Below are positions 25,926 to 34,720 of a stretch of 64,000 nt of DNA, one piece after another (the stretch's first letter is position 1; each line of letters starts with the position of its first letter). The DNA is from a virus (lineage: Duplodnaviria > Caudoviricetes), in IMG/VR virus record IMGVR_UViG_3300022899_000001, positions 13,731 to 77,730 of that record. One strand, given 5' to 3'. Both the position numbers and the translations under genes were made by a program. The notes below the pieces were generated by a model. The model searched no databases. It was not told the origin of the DNA and saw only the letters and a list, made by a program, of their open reading frames with translations.

Positions 25926-26596
25926 GCAGGCACTCGCCTTCCAAAGTACATCGGAAATCTCCTAGCCACTTCATGGAAATTGCGCTGCTCAATCGCATTG
26001 ATGCCGGGCATCTTCGAGCTTGTGGCCTTGCCGATGTGGGTCACGCGGCAGTCTGGAGTAACGTGAAGGGTGTAGCCTTTTTCTATCAGACGAAGACCAA
26101 GGTCTATCTCCTCCCAGTAACAAAACTTCAAGTAATCACTGAACAATCCAACCTCTTTCAACAATTCCGTTCGCCCCATCATGCAATGTCCCCATAGATA
26201 TTCGATTGCGGATTTATCAGGGTTGAGGCTTTTTCGGAAATGACCACCCACCGGCGAGGACAACGCGCACATCTGAAACTCCTTGAACGGACGCTCCAAA
26301 GCCTCAAGCCAGCCAGAATCAACAGTCGTGTCGTCATTGAGGTAAATCACAAAATGCGAAGTTATCTTGGTCAATGCAACTCGTGATGGATTGATGAATC
26401 CCTCGTTCTTTTGATTTATTACCACCGTGACGTTGGGATGATCGCGAGCCAGGCCAAGGAAATAATTCCCAACTACCGGATTACCGTTGCTGGTCAGGCA
26501 TAATTCAAAGTCGGAACTGTGTGCAAATACGGACTCCAGGCATCTCTTACAGTGATCCAGAGCCGTGTATGTCGTTATACAGATGCCGTAACGCAT
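25922..26596 (-). CDS. GT2 family glycosyltransferase
   Basis: ICITTY...CLESV...NEGF...IYLNDDTTV...EEIDLGLRL..KGY. Confidence 0.85.
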   Translation of the reverse strand: MRYGICITTYTALDHCKRCLESVFAHSSDFELCLTSNGNPVVGNYFLGLARDHPNVTVVINQKNEGFINPSRVALTKITSHFVIYLNDDTTVDSGWLEALERPFKEFQMCALSSPVGGHFRKSLNPDKSAIEYLWGHCMMGRTELLKEVGLFSDYLKFCYWEEIDLGLRLIEKGYTLHVTPDCRVTHIGKATSSKMPGINAIEQRNFHEVARRFPMYFGRRVPA

Positions 26597-26953
26597 TTAC
26601 GGTTTCTCTCCCTTCGCCAGCCGAATCATGCTCTTTTGTTGTTCCGGCTTCAGCAGTTGTTTCACGCTCACACCCTTGGTCAGACGGCGATAACGCCTGC
26701 GCGGATCACGCGCCAACAGGTTCACACCGCACGCCTCGGCAAAGTCGCTCACCGTCTTTAGGAGCAATGGCCATTCACGGCGATAGGCCAACGCCTGCAA
26801 CGTGCGCCGCTTGATCCCGCTGCGTTGCACCAGATCGTTGATTGTCCTGTGTTGAACGCCGCGCTTCCGGTCGCGCCTGACAGCCATCGCAAGACAGACG
26901 AAAGGCGGCGTGCGTTGCACGGTTTGCCAGAGGGTTAGGGGTTTGCGATTCAC
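26597..26953 (-). CDS. Basic, putative HTH DNA-binding protein
   Basis: TINDLVQRSGIKRRTLQALAY; 118 aa. Confidence 0.5.
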   Translation of the reverse strand: MNRKPLTLWQTVQRTPPFVCLAMAVRRDRKRGVQHRTINDLVQRSGIKRRTLQALAYRREWPLLLKTVSDFAEACGVNLLARDPRRRYRRLTKGVSVKQLLKPEQQKSMIRLAKGEKP

Positions 26954-26963
26954 GTTTTCAATA

Positions 26964-26993
26964 TGCTAACCCGTCGCATAATCACTGTTAGCA
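26964..26993 (+). other. attI-like site 1
   Basis: AATCACT-GTTAGCA opens array 1 without an attC left arm; 9/10 identical to the site beside the integrase remnant. Confidence 0.55.
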
Positions 26994-27223
26994 GGCTCTC
27001 CGTTTTTGGCGTCGTAGTATTTGTCCCACGCTTTCGAGGTCTGGTCGCACAGGTCATCGTATGCCAGTTGAGCATCTTGAGCTTGCTGTCGTGCTTCGTT
27101 TCGTAGTGATTGGAGTTTTTTGCAGTTCGCAAGTAGCCTGCTAACAAGCTCACTGGAGCGAACCGGCTTGGGCTGCTTCAGTGAGGTTATCAGGGCGTAG
27201 TTGGACGGTTTGATTCGGCTCAT
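26966..27223 (-). CDS. Cassette ORF, small coiled hypothetical protein
   Basis: 85 aa; ATG inside attC 27139-27271; ends ANSDYATG across the attI-like site. Confidence 0.6.
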   Translation of the reverse strand: MSRIKPSNYALITSLKQPKPVRSSELVSRLLANCKKLQSLRNEARQQAQDAQLAYDDLCDQTSKAWDKYYDAKNGEPANSDYATG

Positions 27224-27271
27224 AGGTCTTGTTGCATTTCGCCAGCGGGTCGCTCAGTTCGGTCGTTAGGC
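27139..27271 (+). other. attC-type site (133 bp)
   Basis: TGCTAAC-AAGCTC-ACTGGAGCGAACCGGC ... GCGGGTCGCTCAGT-TCGGTC-GTTAGGC. Confidence 0.85.
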
Positions 27272-27272
27272 G

Positions 27273-27881
27273 TCATAGGAACGCGCCTTGCAAGTTCGGA
27301 CGCTTTCGTTCCGCAAGGCATATTGTGTCGTTGTGGGCCGCGCCGTGGCAGACGAGCATCACTTCGAGGATGTCGCAGCCGTGCTTCTGCCCCATTCCGG
27401 CGCTGTTCCATCCGAAGCTCAGGACGATGGCATCGTCGGTCAGCACTTCGGCCATTGCGTTTTTTACGCGAGAGTAGAGCGCGGCGTTTTGCGTTTCCTT
27501 CATGCCGCACTTGATTCCGGCTTCCTGGTAGCACTCGCTGATTTGGCGCGGCGAGTATGGCGGGTCGAGGATTGCGAGGTCGCACCGGATTCCTTTGCCC
27601 GCGAGCATCCGCAGAAAGTCCTCGGCATCCATGTGATATTCCGCCTCTGTCTTTGGGTTCAGGTCGTTGGTGTAGGTTGCCCATCGTTTGTTGCGTGCGA
27701 ACGGGTCGCACGAGATTTTCGCGGCTTTGAGATAGCGTTGCACCATGTCACCTATTGGCCGGACGCTGAAGGTGTCAGCAGACGGCATTGCCCACACGCG
27801 GGAGAATGACGCCGAACCATACGGTGCAGCGAATGCCGCCATCGCATCTCCGGCGAGTTCGTGAGTCTCAGTGGGCGGCAT
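27273..27881 (-). CDS. Cassette ORF: small adenine-type DNA methyltransferase-like protein
   Basis: ISCDPFARN...LAILDPPYSPRQISECY; true start may be a few codons downstream. Confidence 0.7.
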   Translation of the reverse strand: MPPTETHELAGDAMAAFAAPYGSASFSRVWAMPSADTFSVRPIGDMVQRYLKAAKISCDPFARNKRWATYTNDLNPKTEAEYHMDAEDFLRMLAGKGIRCDLAILDPPYSPRQISECYQEAGIKCGMKETQNAALYSRVKNAMAEVLTDDAIVLSFGWNSAGMGQKHGCDILEVMLVCHGAAHNDTICLAERKRPNLQGAFL

Positions 27882-27904
27882 CGCTGACCTTATCGTCGTT
27901 GGGC
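27811..27904 (+). other. attC-type site (94 bp)
   Basis: GCCGAAC-CATAC-GGTGCAGCGAATGCCGCC ... GGCGGCATCGCTGACC-TTATCGTC-GTTGGGC; the arms differ only by the extra G and A. Confidence 0.9.
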
Positions 27905-28131
27905 CGACGCCAGTGGGTAGCGATCTTATCTACCTTTGCCCACTTTGGCCGATACATTGGCCGGCCATCGTAGAATCTCAGAACGGTTTGGACACTGCCC
28001 CACCACACTTCACCGCTCACGAGTTTAGTGCCAATTTGTATTCGGTCGCCCGGCCCAACCACCGGATGCTGCGAACGTGCGGTTCGCTTTCGGCATCCGG
28101 CTTTGGGAGAAATTGGACGTTTATTTTTCAT
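27868..28131 (-). CDS. Cassette ORF, small basic hypothetical protein
   Basis: 87 aa; starts in attC 28053-28160 and ends PNDDKVSDAAH in attC 27811-27904. Confidence 0.55.
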   Translation of the reverse strand: MKNKRPISPKAGCRKRTARSQHPVVGPGDRIQIGTKLVSGEVWWGSVQTVLRFYDGRPMYRPKWAKVDKIATHWRRPNDDKVSDAAH

Positions 28132-28160
28132 CGGCAGGTCGCTGATCCGGGACGTTCCCC
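28053..28160 (+). other. attC-type site (108 bp)
   Basis: GCCCAAC-CACC-GGATGCTGCGAAC ... GGTCGCTGATCC-GGGAC-GTTCCCC. Confidence 0.85.
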
Positions 28161-28885
28161 ACCTTGAGCACGCGCAGGATTTGCCGTGCGAGATATTCCG
28201 CGAAGGCCGGTGGTATGGCTTGCGCGATTTCTTTTCGAGTCGCCCACGGCATCTGCATGATTTCGCGGGCTTCTTCGAGTCCCTTTGGCTTGCGTCCGAG
28301 TCCGCCAGTTTTCTTTTTACGAGGCGCGTGTTGGAAGCTGCCAGTTCCGCTCACGTCTATCGGGTCAGGTTGTGCGGCGTGGTTGCATTCCGGCGCAGTC
28401 AGCAGGACGTTGCTCTCGAAGATGCGATGCCGGCGCACCCGAAGCCCGAAGGACGAGCCACAGAGCATCACCGGATTTTGCAGCGGCGCACCGACCACGT
28501 TTTCGATGATGTAGAGTCCTCCCCACGCCTTGAGCTTTTCGCGTGTGCGTTCGATGTAGCACTCGTATTCTTTGCCGGTCACATGCTTTAGAGTTGTGTG
28601 CGCCTGGCACGGCGGCGAGGCCCACACGAAATCGAAGCCGGACAGGTCAGCATCCAGCGCATTTCCGATGTGACGCTTGAAGGGATAGTTCAGGCCGCTC
28701 TTGATGTCCCATCCTTCCACCTCGAATCCGGCGTTGTGGATTCCCATGCCCGCACCGCCGGCGCAGCAGAATAAGTCAGCACATCGCGGGGCAGGTGGGG
28801 AACAAGACGCTGCACGCAAAGATGCCCCGCTTCGCAGTTCGAGCGGTTGCATCTTCGGCGGCGCGTCTGTCAGTTCGATAGTCAT
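28121..28885 (-). CDS. Cassette ORF: C5-cytosine DNA methyltransferase (short phage type)
   Basis: DLFCCAGG (I), WASPPCQ (IV), IIENV (VI), RRHRIFE (VIII), IAQAIPPAF (X). Confidence 0.85.
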   Translation of the reverse strand: MTIELTDAPPKMQPLELRSGASLRAASCSPPAPRCADLFCCAGGAGMGIHNAGFEVEGWDIKSGLNYPFKRHIGNALDADLSGFDFVWASPPCQAHTTLKHVTGKEYECYIERTREKLKAWGGLYIIENVVGAPLQNPVMLCGSSFGLRVRRHRIFESNVLLTAPECNHAAQPDPIDVSGTGSFQHAPRKKKTGGLGRKPKGLEEAREIMQMPWATRKEIAQAIPPAFAEYLARQILRVLKVGNVPDQRPADEK

Positions 28886-28931
28886 TTGGCGTTATTGAGG
28901 CGGGGCATCTTGCGTGAGCTTTTCGTTGGGC
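28797..28931 (+). other. attC-type site (135 bp)
   Basis: GGGGAAC-AAGAC-GCTGCACGCAAAGATGCCCCGC ... GCGGGGCATCTTGCGTGAGC-TTTTC-GTTGGGC. Confidence 0.9.
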
Positions 28932-29596
28932 CACTTAGCGCACGTCGCTGCCAGTTCGAGCAGATAGTGCGCGAACGCGGGAGGCGTGGCGTTTGCCTCA
29001 CGCTTTGAGAGTGTCGGTTTATTGGCGGCCTTGCCGCGCTGGTCGTGGAAGCCGACTTGATGCGTCCCGATTGGTCGCGCCCATCGAGGGTGTAGCGGAG
29101 ATTGAGTGCCTGAGCAGTAGAGCCATGTTCGTTTGTTCGCTCGATGCCCGTAGGCCGATTGCCAGACTTCGCACACCCATCCTTGCTTCCATCGCGTCCA
29201 TCCGATTCCAGGATACGGCAGCCCGTGCGCCGTCCATGCGTAGGTTTCCGCAGGATGTTCGAGCACGCCGCCGCAGCGGTTCACAGTGTCGAGCGCAAAT
29301 TGGAAGCAGCCGCCATCATTGCCGGGTCGGTTGTGTTCTCCGCCCCACCGCAGATGATTTATCACCGCCATCTTGCCCCACAGTTGGCAGGGAGGATGAG
29401 CGACCACGGGATTGTTGCCCGCGTAGGTCAGCGCGTTTCGTTCGGCGTCGTAGCAGTCACAGCCGAGCGACTTGTAGAGAGAGTCTTTCATCACGAAAAG
29501 CACAGTGACGTGGCCCAACCAATCAGTGCAGCGAACAGCCGCCCCGCTCTCCGGTTCGGCGTTCACTGGAATTAGAATGTCGGCGGTGTCGTTCAC
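28892..29596 (-). CDS. Cassette ORF: divergent C5 DNA methyltransferase-like phage protein
   Basis: VVAHPPCQLW (PC motif), GGVLEHP, HRANKRTWLY, ANATPPAFA. Confidence 0.6.
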   Translation of the reverse strand: MNDTADILIPVNAEPESGAAVRCTDWLGHVTVLFVMKDSLYKSLGCDCYDAERNALTYAGNNPVVAHPPCQLWGKMAVINHLRWGGEHNRPGNDGGCFQFALDTVNRCGGVLEHPAETYAWTAHGLPYPGIGWTRWKQGWVCEVWQSAYGHRANKRTWLYCSGTQSPLHPRWARPIGTHQVGFHDQRGKAANKPTLSKREANATPPAFAHYLLELAATCAKWPNEKLTQDAPPQ

Positions 29597-29635
29597 GGTT
29601 TCTCTCGGAGGCTGTCGCTGACTTCTGCGTTCTAC
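29513..29635 (+). other. attC-type site (123 bp)
   Basis: GCCCAAC-CAATC-AGTGCAGCGAACAGCC ... GGCTGTCGCTGACT-TCTGC-GTTCTAC. Confidence 0.9.
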
Positions 29636-29922
29636 GGCACCGGCATGACGCCTTTGCTTTTAAGAAAACGGCGGTTGATCTCTTTCGGCCAGTCAGCGGG
29701 CCAGTCGGTTGGGTCGCCTTTGGAGTCCATCAGCACCCACCCTTCGGCATCCCGATACGCAGAGGCCGGTGACGTAGAACCAGCCGGATGCAGCGAACCG
29801 GGCTTCGCCGGTTCGCCATCACGCTTTTTTGAACGGCGCTGCTTTGCCTTCTGTTCACGCAGCCAGTTTCTTGTTGCCGAGTCCTCCGGCCACACTCTTG
29901 GTTTCGCCATGCCCATTGCCAT
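29632..29922 (-). CDS. Cassette ORF, small hypothetical protein
   Basis: 96 aa; starts inside attC 29774-29973; its TAG is part of the next site's R' box. Confidence 0.55.
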   Translation of the reverse strand: MAMGMAKPRVWPEDSATRNWLREQKAKQRRSKKRDGEPAKPGSLHPAGSTSPASAYRDAEGWVLMDSKGDPTDWPADWPKEINRRFLKSKGVMPVP

Positions 29923-29973
29923 ATTCAGATTTCTTTCTTGTTTTCGCCCGGTCGCTGATCCGGGACGTTCTCT
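29774..29973 (+). other. attC-type site (200 bp)
   Basis: GTAGAAC-CAGCC-GGATGCAGCGAACCGGGC ... GCCCGGTCGCTGATCC-GGGAC-GTTCTCT; 21 bp (29950-29970) identical to 28137-28157. Confidence 0.9.
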
Positions 29974-30245
29974 GTCGGCTGTCGCTTACTCTCGTGCCCC
30001 ATCTGCCGGCGGAAGCGGCCTTTGTAGTGCATCGGCACGCCTCCAAAGTGGTTGATAATATAGACGGTGTTTTCGTCCACTGATTTCCATTTGCACGGAT
30101 GCGAGTAGTGGTAGAATTGGTCACCTTTTCGGATTCGCTCCTTGAGTCTCAGCACACGAAATTGGCTAACCACGCGCTGAAGACGACTGCGAGAGCGTCG
30201 GGTAGCACTGGCCGTCTTTCCGCGTTGGAGCTTTTTTGTTTTCAT
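29925..30245 (-). CDS. Cassette-like ORF, small basic hypothetical protein
   Basis: 106 aa; ends ENVPDQRPGENKKEI inside an attC. Confidence 0.55.
   Translation of the reverse strand: MKTKKLQRGKTASATRRSRSRLQRVVSQFRVLRLKERIRKGDQFYHYSHPCKWKSVDENTVYIINHFGGVPMHYKGRFRRQMGHESKRQPTENVPDQRPGENKKEI
30164..30190 (+). other. attC left half-site
   Basis: GGCTAAC-CACGC-GCTGAAGACGACTG with no convincing right arm. Confidence 0.45.
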
Positions 30246-30637
30246 CGCCGCTGCGCCTTGTAGTGTTCCAATATCTTGTCATACTCCGCATCGCCCACTG
30301 GAATGACCTGTCCTTTGAACGGTTCTGGCATATCCTCGCCGCTGAACCATGCGAACCGAGTCCCTTCCACAGTAGTAATGGCGCACCAACCCAAGTCCAA
30401 GTTCTTCTGGCACGTCGGGCAATACGGCTTGTGCTTTGGCTCGACTATCTTCGCTTCGACTCGCTTGGCAAACGGAGCGCCATATCTCTTTCCGCACAAC
30501 GCGCAGGGTATCGCAGCGGATGGCAGCTTGCCGTTGCGCTTGGCCCGATTCTCCATCATGCGGTCGCCATACTGCTTCTTTAACGAAGGCAGCAGCGCGG
30601 AGAGACGCTTCAGTCGGTCGAGGAAGTTGTCGCTCAT
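30242..30637 (-). CDS. Hypothetical protein with two CxxC motifs
   Basis: PCALCG...YCPTCQ; 131 aa. Confidence 0.6.
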   Translation of the reverse strand: MSDNFLDRLKRLSALLPSLKKQYGDRMMENRAKRNGKLPSAAIPCALCGKRYGAPFAKRVEAKIVEPKHKPYCPTCQKNLDLGWCAITTVEGTRFAWFSGEDMPEPFKGQVIPVGDAEYDKILEHYKAQRR

Positions 30638-30642
30638 AACAA

Positions 30643-31182
30643 TCAGCCATCTAGCGGGCTTTTGATGCGCCGCTCGACCGGAGCGGCGACATGAATGTGC
30701 TTTGCATGTCCCGGAAGTGACCCGAATTCACCATGAAGAAGGCGTGATGCGAAAGCATACGCGACGGCAGCGTCCCTCTCGGTATCGAAATGGCCTATTG
30801 GAATCATTTTGTAGTTATACCTAATTCGCGCTCTGAATTTATTCTTGTCCTTTGAGACTCCGCGCACCCCGTATTTGCCCCATGCCAAGTGAAGATTTCG
30901 GCTGTTTTCTCCTTGGGTGCATAGCCTTAAATTCTCCCGGCGATTGTCCAGCCCGTCTCCATTGATGTGGTCAACTTGCTTGTGTGATGATCCATTTATG
31001 CCAAGCATGAATCGGTGCATGGTGACTTCGATCCGCTTTCCGTTTACCGTCGGTCGCCGTGCAGCATAAAGCAGCTTTCCGCCATGACATTGTTTCAAAC
31101 TCCATTTGAACTTTGACAACTTATCGAAGTCCGAATCATCAACGATGGCGTGTTTTCCAGCACTAAGAGGGATTGTTTTCAT
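30643..31182 (-). CDS. HNH homing endonuclease with AP2 DNA-binding domain
   Basis: MHRFML...VDHINGDGLDNRRENLR...N; GVRGVS...FRARIRYN...IGHFDTERDAAVAY. Confidence 0.9.
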   Translation of the reverse strand: MKTIPLSAGKHAIVDDSDFDKLSKFKWSLKQCHGGKLLYAARRPTVNGKRIEVTMHRFMLGINGSSHKQVDHINGDGLDNRRENLRLCTQGENSRNLHLAWGKYGVRGVSKDKNKFRARIRYNYKMIPIGHFDTERDAAVAYAFASRLLHGEFGSLPGHAKHIHVAAPVERRIKSPLDG

Positions 31183-31353
31183 TTAGTTGCTAGTGTGCCG
31201 CAGCGTGTGACATGCTGTCAAACTGTAATCGAGCAAACGCTTGACGTAACAATCCACCGTGCGCGGCGAGTAATGCTTGGTGACCAGCCAGCGGCGGAAC
31301 ACCTCACGTGGCTTGAGTGAATCAGCTTTACGCGGTTCAATTACGGCTGTCAT
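31183..31353 (-). pseudogene. intI: Integron-integrase (tyrosine recombinase) remnant, 56 aa
   Basis: My translation: MTAVIEPRKADSLKPREVFRRWLVTKHYSPRTVDCYVKRLLDYSLTACHTLRHTSN*. It joins an IntI-type N-terminal HYSxRTxxxY helix directly to the box II CHTLRH motif. Confidence 0.75.
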
Positions 31354-31643
31354 GGCTTTGAGTCGTTGGAATAACTGTTCTGACGCTTGGAATCAGCAGC
31401 TTCAATCTCTTTTGAGAAGGCGACCATTGCGTTGACCACCTCAGTCTTGTGGGCAAGTGGCACTTCAGGTTGGTAGCACAGAAGGTCTGTTATTTCCTTC
31501 ATCCACGCTTCAAGCCTCTGGACGGCAGGTCGCGTCAGAACCATGCGGTGCAGCGAATGAGCTTCCGCCTGTTCCGCTTCTCGCAGGCTTCGCTCTGTAG
31601 CGCAGTCTAGGCACAGACAATCTTCTTCGTGTTTATCGCTCAT
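31350..31643 (-). CDS. Cassette ORF (first of array 2), hypothetical protein
   Basis: ATG at 31643 lies in the L' arm of the attC; ends QNSYSNDSKP; its TGA overlaps the intI ATG. Confidence 0.6.
   Translation of the reverse strand: MSDKHEEDCLCLDCATERSLREAEQAEAHSLHRMVLTRPAVQRLEAWMKEITDLLCYQPEVPLAHKTEVVNAMVAFSKEIEAADSKRQNSYSNDSKP
31365..31383 (+). other. attI-like site 2
   Basis: AATAACT-GTTCTGA, about 24 bp upstream of the intI ATG and on the opposite strand, as in canonical integrons. Confidence 0.65.
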
Positions 31644-31664
31644 CGCTGACCTTTTTCGTTCTAC
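31535..31664 (+). other. attC-type site (130 bp)
   Basis: TCAGAAC-CATGC-GGTGCAGCGAATGAGC ... GCTCATCGCTGACC-TTTTTC-GTTCTAC. Confidence 0.9.
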
Positions 31665-31915
31665 AGCACCCGCTCGCTGTGTTTTATTTCGACGCATCTG
31701 ATTTCGGGGGGCACTAGCAAGTCCCTAAAGAACCATCTGGCATATTCCAGCGCCTGTGATTTGTTGTCCCGCTGGCCGGGGATCCGTTCCCATTTGGCCT
31801 TCTTTGTTTTCCATTCGACCGCGTATGCTGTAGAACCACGGCATGGAGCAGAACTGCCCTTGCGCTTTGCAGTTTTCAAGCGTGCTGGTTTGCGGGAGTT
31901 GGTTTTCGTTTTCAT
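31661..31915 (-). CDS. Cassette ORF, small basic hypothetical protein
   Basis: 84 aa, bounded by attC sites. Confidence 0.55.
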   Translation of the reverse strand: MKTKTNSRKPARLKTAKRKGSSAPCRGSTAYAVEWKTKKAKWERIPGQRDNKSQALEYARWFFRDLLVPPEIRCVEIKHSERVL

Positions 31916-31960
31916 ATTTTCGGGCTGTCGGCGGGCAGTCGCTCATCGCCGACGTTCTGC
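31830..31960 (+). other. attC-type site (131 bp)
   Basis: GTAGAAC-CACGGCATGGAGCAGAACTGCCC ... GGGCAGTCGCTCATCGCCGAC-GTTCTGC. Confidence 0.8.
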
Positions 31961-32274
31961 CGCCTGCGTTTCAGTCCTTCGAGCCGCTTCTGGAGAGCCG
32001 TTAGGTCGCGCTCCGATTCAGCGATTGCCTTGGCGAAGGCTTCGTCCCGCGTCTCGAAAAGATGATGTCCTTCCGCGCCGGAGAATCCGACTTCTGGACA
32101 CCACCACATTGTTGGGTTGCTTGGAGCGCATGAGTAGCCAGTGACTTCGCGCACGTCACCATCTGCCACGGCCCACCATTGGCGTTTCTCGCGTTCGACT
32201 GCGGCAGAACCACCGGGTCGAGCTAACCCGGCGGGCCGATCTGGTTGTTGGATGTTGGTTTGCATGGATTTCAC
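31912..32274 (-). CDS. Cassette ORF, hypothetical protein
   Basis: 120 aa; ends QNVGDERLPADSPKI inside an attC. Confidence 0.6.
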   Translation of the reverse strand: MKSMQTNIQQPDRPAGLARPGGSAAVEREKRQWWAVADGDVREVTGYSCAPSNPTMWWCPEVGFSGAEGHHLFETRDEAFAKAIAESERDLTALQKRLEGLKRRRQNVGDERLPADSPKI

Positions 32275-32316
32275 GTTTGGGTTTTCGCGCCGGGTAGCTC
32301 ACCCGGAGCGTTCTGC
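32204..32316 (+). other. attC-type site (113 bp)
   Basis: GCAGAAC-CACC-GGGTCGAGCTAACCCGGCG ... CGCCGGGTAGCTCACCC-GGAGC-GTTCTGC. Confidence 0.9.
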
Positions 32317-32579
32317 CAATGTTCCTCGCATCGAACCTTGGCCTCTTTGACCGTGGCGTAATCACCGATAGTCCAGGATCGTCTATAGGCCGTTCCAGAG
32401 GAGACGTGCGCTTGGACTTTGGCTCTGTATTGCGTCACGAAATAGCGAAACCCAGCCGACGCAGCCCACGTCCACATATTTACTCCATTCGCCTGACTGT
32501 AATGCCAAATGGCAGAACCAACCGGATGGAGCAGACCCGGTTGGGCGTATTGAGTTTTTTCTTGAGGTTCAGGTTTCAT
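32271..32579 (-). CDS. Cassette ORF, hypothetical protein
   Basis: 102 aa; ends QNAPGELPGAKTQT inside an attC. Confidence 0.6.
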   Translation of the reverse strand: MKPEPQEKTQYAQPGLLHPVGSAIWHYSQANGVNMWTWAASAGFRYFVTQYRAKVQAHVSSGTAYRRSWTIGDYATVKEAKVRCEEHWQNAPGELPGAKTQT

Positions 32580-32619
32580 AAAGTCTCAGTTCCGGGGCTG
32601 CTCATCCGGGACGTTAGCC
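32512..32619 (+). other. attC-type site (108 bp)
   Basis: GCAGAAC-CAACC-GGATGGAGCAGACCCGG ... CCGGGGCTGCTCATCC-GGGAC-GTTAGCC. Confidence 0.9.
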
Positions 32620-32778
32620 AGCATTGAACGATGCGCACACCACACATTGTTTCGCGCCTTCCGTCGCCTCACCAAGATACTCCGCTTTTACCTGTTCGAC
32701 CGATGAGCACCACGCCGAGTATTTATCTCGCCACCCTTGGTGTGGTCCTTCGTTATTCGCTGGCCGCATTCTGCACAT
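32614..32778 (-). CDS. Possible 54-aa cassette ORF
   Basis: MCRMRPANNEG...QCVVCASFNAG*; the stop TAA lies in the R' box. Confidence 0.35.
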   Translation of the reverse strand: MCRMRPANNEGPHQGWRDKYSAWCSSVEQVKAEYLGEATEGAKQCVVCASFNAG

Positions 32779-32797
32779 CTCATAGTTAGTTGTTTTT

Positions 32798-32828
32798 CAT
32801 CGGTGCTGCTTTAACTCAGTCGTTCTGC
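32798..32828 (+). other. attC right half-site
   Basis: CATCGGTGCTGCTTTAACT-CAGTC-GTTCTGC; a 49-aa ORF (32816-32965, minus) ends QND* across it. Confidence 0.4.
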
Positions 32829-33088
32829 GTCTTCGCCTCGTCCAGTTGCGGAGCGCGGCATTGTGGGCCGCACGACAGGTCTTCGATGACCTGTTCCGTG
32901 GCTTCCTCTGGCAGTTCGTCCAGAAAGATTCTCACGCCTTTGTAGCGCACGAGGCGCACGCTCATCGCTCAGCTTGGTCGTAAGATTCAAAACCAATGCT
33001 CCGCCCGCTACAGTCACTCTGGTGAGGAATGATGGTCTTGCGACCAACGGAGCACTGGAAACTTGATCGTGACTGTAGCATGGAGGAG

Positions 33089-33117
33089 ATAAAAACACCT
33101 TGGCGTAAGAATGTCAA
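33089..33117 (-). promoter_or_regulatory. Candidate sigma70-type promoter for the accessory/cassette operon
   Basis: TTGACA-N17-TTTTAT with TG at the extended -10 position. Confidence 0.4.
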
Positions 33118-33153
33118 CTATAAAAATCATTGCCTTAAATCGCTTTCGGGAGC

Positions 33154-33369
33154 ATGGTTGGCAACGTGACCGACGCAGAGAAAAAAAGGCTTCGAGGGTT
33201 GAGTAACCGAACTGAATCTGTGCGTGGTCCTATCGAAGGCTTCTCGTTGACGGAACTTCCGCCCAAGATTCTGAAAATATGCCCGGAGCTTGAGTCTTGG
33301 AGACAGGTAAACAACGAGCGAATCCGTGACCATTTCTCCAAATTAAACACCACGTTGCCTGCAACCTGA
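33154..33369 (+). CDS. Small protein leading the ejection operon
   Basis: 71 aa; stop 1 nt before the next ATG. Confidence 0.5.
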   Translation: MVGNVTDAEKKRLRGLSNRTESVRGPIEGFSLTELPPKILKICPELESWRQVNNERIRDHFSKLNTTLPAT

Positions 33370-33370
33370 T

Positions 33371-34720
33371 ATGCCAATTAACCCTTACACTGGCGGTGAT
33401 CCAAACACATTCTTGCAACGCAATTACGGTGTTCTGCCGTCGCTCTCCGGCAGGCGATTCAGCGGTGTGCCAACTGGCCAAGTGGTTCTCGATTCGTTGA
33501 TGGGGTATATTGACAGTGGGACCGGACGACCGTTCACTGGGGCCCTTGGCACCACGGGCAAGTTTGTCGTGAACGGCAAATTGTCTGACACTGACCCAAA
33601 CGCCGTGCCGAAACCCGACTTCCAGCGCAACGTCCTCTATCCCGAAATCGCTACACCCGCCACGGCGCTCGCCAAGACTATCGGCACCGGCTCATCTCTG
33701 ACGCCAGATTTTAATAAACTCGCCACAGACTACCGTGCGGCTTCCGACACCGCGCTCAAGTCTTACGACACTGCCCCGCTCGAAACCGAAGTGCGCGGGT
33801 TGCAGAAGTCCTACGAGACTGGCCAAGGCGATGTCCTCTCGAAGTTCAGCGACAGCAATGCGCGGTATGCGCAGGAAGCCAAGGACGCGATTGCCCGGCT
33901 GACCTCGCAACTGGACAAGACCGAATCCAACATTCGGCAGCAGGCCGGTGCCGCTTCATCCCTTGGCGCATCCATCGCACGGTTTCCTGGTGTTGGAGGT
34001 TCCGACACGATCACGTCCAACAACGCTGGCTTGGCTCCGCGCATTGCCCGCGCATCGCTCCTGCCGCAGCTTGCGGCTGAGGAACGCATCGGCAACCAAC
34101 GCTATGGCCAGATTGCCAACATTGAGATGCCGCTGAACCGCGAACTCTACGGCAACGATCAGGGTTTGCTCAGTTTCACCGCCGCGTTGAATGACAAATT
34201 TCGTGGCGACAGATTCCAGATTGCGTCCTTCCTGAACGATGTCAAAACGCGGATGGCCGCGATGCCATTGCAGTTGCAGGAGAACTACGCCAATTACGTC
34301 CTGAAGCTGATTGGCGGTGAACAGGCGATTGCAGCAGGCCAGTTGTCGAACCTGTCAGCCGCGCAACGGTTGATTGCCGCGAGTGAATATCTGGAGCGTA
34401 ACATTCCTGAGCCAGCCACGGCGCCAATGTTGAGTTATCCGGTCAGCACGCCGGGTTATGCGCCCGTGCGTCAGCCGCAGAATGTGTCGGTTAATGATCT
34501 GCTGAATTTGCTGGCGCAACGCAGTGGCCAGCCTGCTCAACCCGGAGTCCAACCCGTGTATCCGAATCCAAGTCAGTACCTCAATCGTGCGACACCGAGC
34601 ATTCCTTTCGACCCCTACGCTGTTAGTGGTGGTTCTGCGGTTGTGAACGGGAACTACTACGGCCCTAGCACAGGCGCGGCTGCTGACCAATGGTGGAACG
34701 ATTCGCTTATGGGTGGATGA
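33371..34720 (+). CDS. Internal virion/ejection protein
   Basis: 449 aa, A/Q/G-rich and helical, upstream of the giant gene. Confidence 0.55.
   Translation: MPINPYTGGDPNTFLQRNYGVLPSLSGRRFSGVPTGQVVLDSLMGYIDSGTGRPFTGALGTTGKFVVNGKLSDTDPNAVPKPDFQRNVLYPEIATPATALAKTIGTGSSLTPDFNKLATDYRAASDTALKSYDTAPLETEVRGLQKSYETGQGDVLSKFSDSNARYAQEAKDAIARLTSQLDKTESNIRQQAGAASSLGASIARFPGVGGSDTITSNNAGLAPRIARASLLPQLAAEERIGNQRYGQIANIEMPLNRELYGNDQGLLSFTAALNDKFRGDRFQIASFLNDVKTRMAAMPLQLQENYANYVLKLIGGEQAIAAGQLSNLSAAQRLIAASEYLERNIPEPATAPMLSYPVSTPGYAPVRQPQNVSVNDLLNLLAQRSGQPAQPGVQPVYPNPSQYLNRATPSIPFDPYAVSGGSAVVNGNYYGPSTGAAADQWWNDSLMGG

Follow-up and report, generated by a model that had tools for sequence, protein, structure and literature searches.

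Bacterial integrons pair an IntI-type integrase (TIGR02249; VchIntIA, PDB 2a3v), encoded opposite the top strand of the attC sites, with an adjacent attI that has a G/TT crossover (here and below the slash marks a crossover or a junction) and with cassettes that follow the R''/R' boundary rule. Decayed intI genes are found next to clusters of attC sites (CALINs; Cury et al., 2016; PMC4889954), and loss of intI that leaves such a cluster behind is common in bacteria. Phage integrons have also been published, as host-derived fragments or small CALINs: a survey of temperate phages reported three complete integrons and one In0, together with 17 small CALINs (Qi et al., 2023; PMC9892861). The complete ones are host chromosomal or class 1 fragments in prophages or in P1, the phage CALINs are described with two or more attC sites (the TJE1 example has three), and DNA methyltransferase cassettes occur among them (Qi et al., 2023).

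The locus described here lies in a window of 64,000 nucleotides (the whole stretch analysed), part of a 77.7-kb IMG/VR virus record that is rated complete and carries terminase and virion genes. With a probability of roughly 85%, we read it as the stump of a phage integron's intI that was killed by a deletion and by an HNH gene, which persists in a leader-like manner beside intact attI and attC sites that would need an IntI acting in trans. The element shares with bacterial integrons the IntI-type ancestry, the position of intI opposite the attC top strand, the adjacent attI with its G/TT crossover and the R''/R' boundary rule. It differs from them in residing in a phage genome, in the phage-associated IntI clade to which it belongs, in an attI crossover only 24 nt from the start codon and in cassette genes that lie on the attC bottom strand and point to intI, so that, unlike in the divergent bacterial layout, intI comes last in the cassette operon. 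As in the survey of Qi et al. (2023), a phage here carries intI, attI and attC; however, the window has ten attC sites in two arrays, its integrase clade occurs in at least two phage types (a GpA-type terminase at locus L006, Terminase_3 in the window), and the cassettes at one attI differ across seven alleles.

A second comparison is with genes split by free-standing HNH-AP2 homing endonucleases. The window likewise has an HNH_3 plus AP2 gene inserted in a conserved coding region, with a start that abuts the upstream stop and reuse of the 3' end of the interrupted gene. One such split gene is reportedly nrdA of Aeromonas phage Aeh1, interrupted by insertion of the endonuclease gene mobE. Unlike in split genes, the interrupted intI of the window is mostly deleted and not kept functional in pieces. 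In the literature we found no report of an HNH gene inside intI, of a phage-associated IntI clade with its own attI, or of cassette genes that run antisense to the attC top strand in the orientation of intI.

A truncated integrase gene

The remains of intI and the gene inserted in it comprise the following features:

31183..31353, minus strand: delta-intI stump, a 56-aa ORF (BLASTP to the full-length IntI P0004, 37/44, E 2e-26)
31225..31353, minus strand: stump codons 1-43, the N-terminal (SAM-like) piece, equivalent to IntI residues 1-43
31195..31221, minus strand: stump codons 45-53, LTACHTLRH, the box II remnant, equivalent to IntI residues ~268-275
30643..31182, minus strand: gene for a 179-aa HNH-AP2 protein of homing-endonuclease type, inserted after box II and before the catalytic Tyr codon of intI
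30646..30696, minus strand: integrase C-terminal tail, in frame as the last 17 HNH codons IHVAAPVERRIKSPLDG (blastn to L006 and L008)

The initial annotation had proposed a 56-aa ORF at 31183-31353 with an IntI-like N-terminal motif, TACHTLRH as box II, more than 200 residues missing between the two and an ATG overlapping the stop of the first cassette gene. Each of these points was borne out, on the minus strand. Over its first 43 residues the stump shares 84% identity (E 2e-26) with the N-terminus of 328-aa viral/metagenome proteins, and the DNA at 31383-31227 is 82-86% identical to that of three related loci (L006, L008 and L005). In box II, H49-T-L-R-H53 of the stump matches P0004 H271-H275 exactly, collinear and in frame, and its DNA (CACACGCTGCGGCAC) agrees with L008 at 13/15 positions. 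On its own this piece is not significant (E 0.18); it convinces because the integrase pieces flank it, N-terminal before and C-terminal after, in the right order and reading frame. The deletion junction falls between stump codons 43 and 45, and ~225 codons are missing (P0004 residues 44 to ~267), among them those for the box I Arg, the Lys hairpin and the IntI-specific segment. HTLRH is followed by three codons, a TAA and the HNH gene. The stump begins and ends in close contact with its neighbours: at its 5' end the ATG (31353-31351) and the TGA (31352-31350) of the upstream minus-strand ORF form a joint ATGA (31350-31353), and at its 3' end the TAA (31185-31183) runs straight into the HNH ATG as TAAATG. 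Contigs from four other samples carry the same stump/HNH arrangement at 99.6-100% identity; without read-level data, it is this recurrence that leads us to hold that the arrangement is not an assembly artefact.

By themselves, the 56 aa had no match in Pfam, only E 0.15 with NCBIfam TIGR02249 and only E 0.25 with phrog_216 of PHROGs. An uninterrupted 63-aa allele matches PF13495 (E 0.0016, profile positions 4-40), a family without a match in six frames across the phage genome, and blastn of the region against GenBank phages returned nothing. Neither a Shine-Dalgarno sequence nor a promoter was identified at the stump, and no promoter or terminator stood out in the region. A perfect TTGACA hexamer lies at the deletion junction before box II (31213-31218 in the window, ~214-219 in the related locus L017), where GTGACG or GTTACG stands in intact intI genes. 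The hexamer could be the scar of a common junction, or it could act as a -35-like element serving the HNH gene; no -10 element beside it was convincing.

Full-length relatives and the identity of the stump

A word-indexed search led to P0002, an 84-aa protein at locus L005, the true gene of which has 63 codons: a window-type N-terminus fused directly to ...PVERRIKSPLDA, an ending that is also the C-terminus of the window HNH ORF. When this 63-aa allele was used as query against longer proteins, three were retrieved: P0004 (328 aa, IMG/VR contig L006/L012), P0005 (328 aa, L007) and P0003 (210 aa, L008). P0004 and P0005 score 330 and 343 bits on the TIGR02249 integron integrase model (cut-off 265), in one stretch covering positions 5-314/315. 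On the XerC/XerD models they reach only 131-143 bits, in two stretches, against cut-offs of 330-335, and cannot be counted as members. The alignment of P0004 to VchIntIA (2a3v) has E 6.7e-65, spans residues 20-321 and contains a single gap of four residues, upstream of the IntI-specific segment; this segment, LPGAL..KFP..W.W.FVFP...RHH in P0004, aligns free of gaps. The window has lost the IntI-specific I2 helix region that lies between patches II and III; the full-length relatives retain it.

Could the stump instead derive from an ordinary phage or XerC/D-type integrase and be uninformative about integrons? The only support for this is that no HMM is significant on the 56 aa alone. The stump does meet the criterion of homology to IntI over the SAM-like N-terminal domain, and its full-length relatives pass TIGR02249, miss the Xer models by ~190 bits, align with 2a3v through the IntI-specific segment and belong with attI and attC sites of integron geometry (see below). 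We regard this origin as refuted, with barely any probability left to it. The assignment of the stump as an IntI-type remnant, not one of XerC/D or a generic phage integrase, is supported because the full-length relatives pass TIGR02249 and align through the IntI-specific segment. The initial annotation had called the ORF an integron-integrase remnant and had suggested seeking full-length homologues with the I2 insertion, which P0004 and P0005 provide; best matches to Xer or phage integrases without that insertion, which would have refuted it, were not encountered. Its suggestion to compare the stump pieces with IntI by HMM succeeded for the full-length relatives, not for the 56 aa themselves. 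In one scan of GTDB genomes the nearest IntI proteins were only 42-47% identical, in two MAGs, and no attC of the window type was found in either.

An HNH-AP2 gene inside intI

The initial annotation correctly saw a remnant but omitted the gene that sits in intI and includes its 3' end. This ORF matches PF13392 (HNH_3) with 34.4 bits (cut-off 24.8) and phrog_99 with E 5.7e-32 over residues 47-163; close relatives match both PF00847 and PF13392, and the gene qualifies as HNH_3 with an AP2-type DNA-binding domain. DNA similarity to intact intI resumes at 30698 (blastn, window 30698-30649 against L006 and L008), and the integrase tail borne by the HNH protein matches P0005 at E 5e-8 (BLASTP). The codon at 30697-30699 reads CAC (His); intact genes carry the catalytic Tyr (TAC or TAT) at this position. 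Most of 915 HNH-AP2 relatives are 150-175 aa long, and their native C-terminus reads ...AYAFAS..LHGEFGSLPGH-x-K-F (or H). Because the native protein ends GSLPGH-x-K-F, we place the fusion point between HNH and integrase at codon 162/163. The insertion replaced ~26-30 integrase codons. BLASTP also aligns HNH residues 142-161 (AFASRLLHGEFG) with the box II sequence SFATHLLESG, but this is coincidental: these residues are native to the free-standing HNH-AP2 relatives, and we rejected them as box II. Rfam returned no family over 26000-34000 and hence no group I intron around the HNH gene.

Three of the 35 nearest HNH relatives carry an integrase tail and most are free-standing, although the query contained the tail and retrieval was biased accordingly. 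At L017 the layout is like that of the window and the HNH protein is 67% identical. The stump there is of the type of the metagenome protein P0016 (76% identical to it, ~36% to the window stump by a count by eye), the TTGACA motif just before box II is common to both loci, the end of the remnant ORF and the HNH start overlap as ATGA, and the 3' junction falls at the Tyr codon as in the window (GHEK/YNHVAAP). L016 represents a third, IntI1-like type (HYALRTEQAYWHW), with an HNH protein 53% identical and the tail ...AVRSPLD; at L016:570-1686 the integrase N-terminus stays open through ~90 unrecognisable codons into an HNH-AP2 gene ending ...GGHAVRSPLDTVEM. In a contig of 68% G+C this open frame may be due to chance. 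L018 (864-1217) has the fusion junction of the window at 82% DNA identity (dN/dS 0.05). It lacks the stump and the N-terminal half of the HNH protein; the AP2 half and the integrase tail remain, with dN/dS against the window of 0.04 in the AP2 part and 0.13 in the 17 codons of the tail, which suggests that the AP2 half with its IntI tail may itself be under selection. At L007 (4749-5315) a different HNH_3 gene lies two genes downstream of the intact intI; it is unrelated to that of the window and was rejected as a relative.

Loss of the catalytic domain

From the catalytic set (Arg I, Lys, box II His-x-x-Arg, His/Trp, Tyr) only H-T-L-R-H is left in the window intI, which lacks residues ~44-267 and ~276-305 and has His at the Tyr position. 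Searches with PF00589 and PF00239 in six frames across the whole 77.7-kb genome gave no match, while control genomes did match, and no tyrosine or serine recombinase was found elsewhere in the phage by these models. A split integrase with its remainder encoded elsewhere was rejected on the genome-wide absence of PF00589. The window intI is, as predicted from its coding sequence, a pseudogene and not a functional member of the family. The view of the initial annotation that the remnant cannot be catalytic is thereby supported, with ~225 codons gone, Tyr replaced by His and no PF00589 in the genome, although loss of activity remains an inference.

attI and the crossover point

Two features on the canonical side of intI define the recombination site:

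31354..31383, plus strand: attI, conserved GGCTTTGAGTCGTTGGAATAACTG/TT, crossover between 31377 and 31378
31378..31658, plus strand: first (attI-proximal) cassette

Reading the loci on the top strand from the complement of the intI start codon, we found a common ...GAGTCGTTGGAATAACTG/TT in seven alleles (the window, L003/L004, L005, L006, L007, L008 and L025), which are unrelated after the TT. Similarity breaks exactly at AACTG/TT, 24 nt from the intI start codon. At all four loci that have the first attC on the contig, the junction heptamer is complementary at 7/7 positions to the R'' of that attC:

Window: junction heptamer GTTCTGA, first-attC R'' TCAGAAC
L005: junction heptamer GTTCGGA, first-attC R'' TCCGAAC
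L006: junction heptamer GTTACCA, first-attC R'' TGGTAAC
L007: junction heptamer GTTCGGC, first-attC R'' GCCGAAC

The break in attI and the complementarity of the heptamers therefore put the crossover between 31377 and 31378. The locus meets the criterion for an integron platform, an attI beside the 5' end of intI with G/TT and an R'' complementing the 5' TTRRRY of the cassette. Scans of viral and metagenome contigs for the attI pattern gave mostly chance hits; L021 (the L006 contig) and L025 were the only true ones. Seven different first cassettes at a single crossover point constitute direct evidence, at the level of sequence, that attI x attC recombination has occurred in this lineage.

attC arrays

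The attC-like sites fall into two arrays:

31535-31664, 31830-31960, 32204-32316 and 32512-32619, plus strand: four attC on the canonical side of intI
26987..29973, plus strand: second array with six attC (27139-27271, 27811-27904, 28053-28160, 28797-28931, 29513-29635 and 29774-29973)

Each of the ten sites folds as a hairpin. When the ten are aligned, the L-box stem is 87% paired, against 23-39% in slid controls, and 9/13 of its pairs show compensatory changes. Since the 5' arm on the plus strand has two extra bases, the plus strand is the attC top strand. Complementarity between the R' and R'' of neighbouring sites is the classical rule for cassette boundaries. Here the 3' heptamer of a site is the reverse complement of the next site's 5' heptamer at 6-7 of 7 positions in all eight within-array neighbour pairs; in the four-site array R'(n) and R''(n+1) are reverse complements at 7/7. 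We base the attC call on this rule and on our own covariance model (R1), which was built only from the ten sites of the window.

The four canonical-side sites score 80-91 bits on R1. Among the relatives the model finds 11 sites at L006, four at L007, four at L005 (one cut by the contig end), one at L018 and a partial one at L008. These sites all lie on the strand opposite intI and upstream of it; the downstream side has none. The six-site array is found beyond the 3' end of the intI stump, a side on which the relatives have no sites. It starts at an attI-like AATCACTG/TTAGCA (26987) that resembles the attI AATAACTG/TT, and reverse-complementing the GTTAGCA at this point gives TGCTAAC, the R'' of the first site in the array. 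No integrase was found beside it; the neighbouring 118-aa ORF is unrelated. The initial annotation had taken the stump as corroboration of the attC sites, and this finds backing in relatives with intact intI, which carry the same attC type at the canonical place. The stump ties the phage hairpin array to a real integron integrase, and relatives keep the intact enzyme beside the same kind of attI and attC sites. With seven first cassettes at one crossover and intact relatives, it follows that integron-type gene capture has operated inside phage genomes, and not only in host fragments carried by prophages.

Recurrent decay of intI

L001 and L002 carry the dead allele of the window at 100% identity, L003 and L004 at 99.6%. 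The latter two (L003:1-112 and L004:1-100, against window 31351-31480) have a different first cassette, and similarity stops exactly at the crossover, where the window reads G/TTCTGA... and L003/L004 read G/TTATGC.... Either a cassette was exchanged by IntI in trans after the integrase had died, or the dead allele entered phages with other arrays. Independently broken alleles encode 63 aa (L005) and 210 aa (L008, with a deletion between DFARH and DFDRH). In metagenomes, the in-frame mini forms P0006, P0010, P0013 and P0016 (86-133 aa) join the N-terminal domain to box II or to the C-terminal tail; P0013 and P0016 have a common junction (LAN or LAG to HTFRH) that probably arose from microhomology between VHVT and V/C-HT. 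Several truncated N-termini are also among the independent decayed alleles. Judged from these alleles, loss of intI is frequent in this clade.

Across the N-terminal 43 codons dN/dS is 0.03-0.07 in every pair, including pairs of dead alleles; for the window against L005, both dead, it is 0.05 at a dS of ~0.86. The tail of the HNH-fused integrase also looks constrained (dN/dS 0.13 over 17 codons against L018, which has the same junction). Given no relaxation in the 43 codons, either all decay events were recent or the peptide is still selected.

How the locus may have arisen and why the stump persists

What the data establish is an IntI pseudogene in a genome from which the catalytic domain is absent, with attI and attC intact. 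In the reading that we favour, an in-frame deletion of ~225 codons would have joined intI codon 43 to box II, and an HNH-AP2 gene would have inserted just past HTLRH, replacing ~26-30 codons and ending in the last 17 codons of the integrase, with His at the catalytic Tyr position. As there is no catalytic domain elsewhere in the 77.7-kb genome, the phage would be unable to move its own cassettes. Since attI and ten attC sites are intact, further exchange would need IntI in trans, for example from a co-infecting relative with an intact intI, and without it the cassette array would presumably be frozen. We infer that the stump persists owing to its first codons, which overlap or abut attI, and to the open translated path that it provides from the upstream ATGA overlap to the TAAATG at the HNH start; along this path the endonuclease would probably be expressed by translational coupling. 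An open path to the HNH start exists elsewhere, through an ATGA overlap at L017 and in frame without a stop at L016. The 56-aa product is most likely functionless. Expression, translational coupling and loss of activity are all deduced from the DNA alone.

Counter-evidence to a purely neutral remnant is the low dN/dS of the 43 codons, and the same value invites the idea that the 56-aa product, or the IntI tail of the HNH protein, is a functional mini-protein, such as a DNA-binding or IntI-interacting modulator of an integrase supplied in trans. The many in-frame N-to-C mini forms in metagenomes (P0002, P0006, P0010, P0013 and P0016) and the dN/dS of 0.13 that the tail shows after fusion would fit this. 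Yet the 43 residues do not make up even half of the IntI N-terminal domain, out-of-frame truncations (P0008, P0009, P0011 and P0014) are about as common as in-frame ones, the low dN/dS could have been inherited from the time of the intact gene, and L018 does without the stump entirely. We consider a functional mini-protein doubtful. Somewhat less remote, but still on the unlikely side, is the possibility that the intI 5' stump, the HNH gene and the 3' tail form a homing unit that kills the intact intI of co-infecting phages, repair copying the deleted, HNH-bearing allele with stump and tail as homology arms. This would account for the persistence of the stump and is compatible with a dead gene. 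Homing endonucleases usually insert in the most conserved part of a gene, and the insertion is in that part of intI. The layout recurs in different IntI backgrounds: L017 combines an HNH protein 67% identical with a stump only ~36% identical, the same TTGACA junction and a 3' junction at the Tyr codon, and L016 adds a third IntI type with its 53% identical HNH protein and AVRSPLD tail. L003/L004, moreover, hold the dead allele at 99.6% identity next to a different first cassette, with similarity ending at attI; this difference could equally be the work of IntI in trans. Against a homing unit stand the free-standing state of most close HNH relatives (tail in only 3 of the nearest 35, from a search biased by the tail in its query) and the lack of a known cleavage site and of cleavage data. 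The recurrence of the insertion site in diverged intI lineages is indirect evidence that suggests, and does not prove, homing of the HNH gene into intI. If it were true, the unit would freeze the cassette array of the recipient and would explain the frequent decay of intI in this phage-borne integron family. An endonuclease gene in the catalytic core points to a conflict of two mobile elements and suggests a testable cause of frequent intI loss.

Orientation and content of the cassette genes

The layout of the window departs from textbook integrons in that its cassette genes run antisense to the attC top strand, in the direction of intI. The criterion that cassette genes lie on the attC top strand and lead away from intI from a Pc promoter is not met, as the genes are on the bottom strand. 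The gene of the first cassette (31350..31643/31697, minus strand) crosses attI and ends at the TGA that overlaps the intI ATG. The initial annotation had inferred that an intact intI would be expressed together with the cassettes. Co-orientation of the cassette genes with intI in the window, L005, L006 and L007 agrees with this; the ATGA overlap with the upstream ORF does not generalise, being confined to decayed alleles (the window, L005 and L008), whereas at L006 and L007, with intact intI, the upstream gene ends 32-220 nt earlier. Co-transcription of intI with the cassette genes is inferred and not demonstrated.

Between 27000 and 32600 all cassette genes are on the minus strand, the attC bottom strand, and overlap attC arms; the gene of the first cassette starts within its own attC. 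The cargo includes a C5-methyltransferase-like gene (28121-28885), a 50% identical homologue of which is present in the array of L006.
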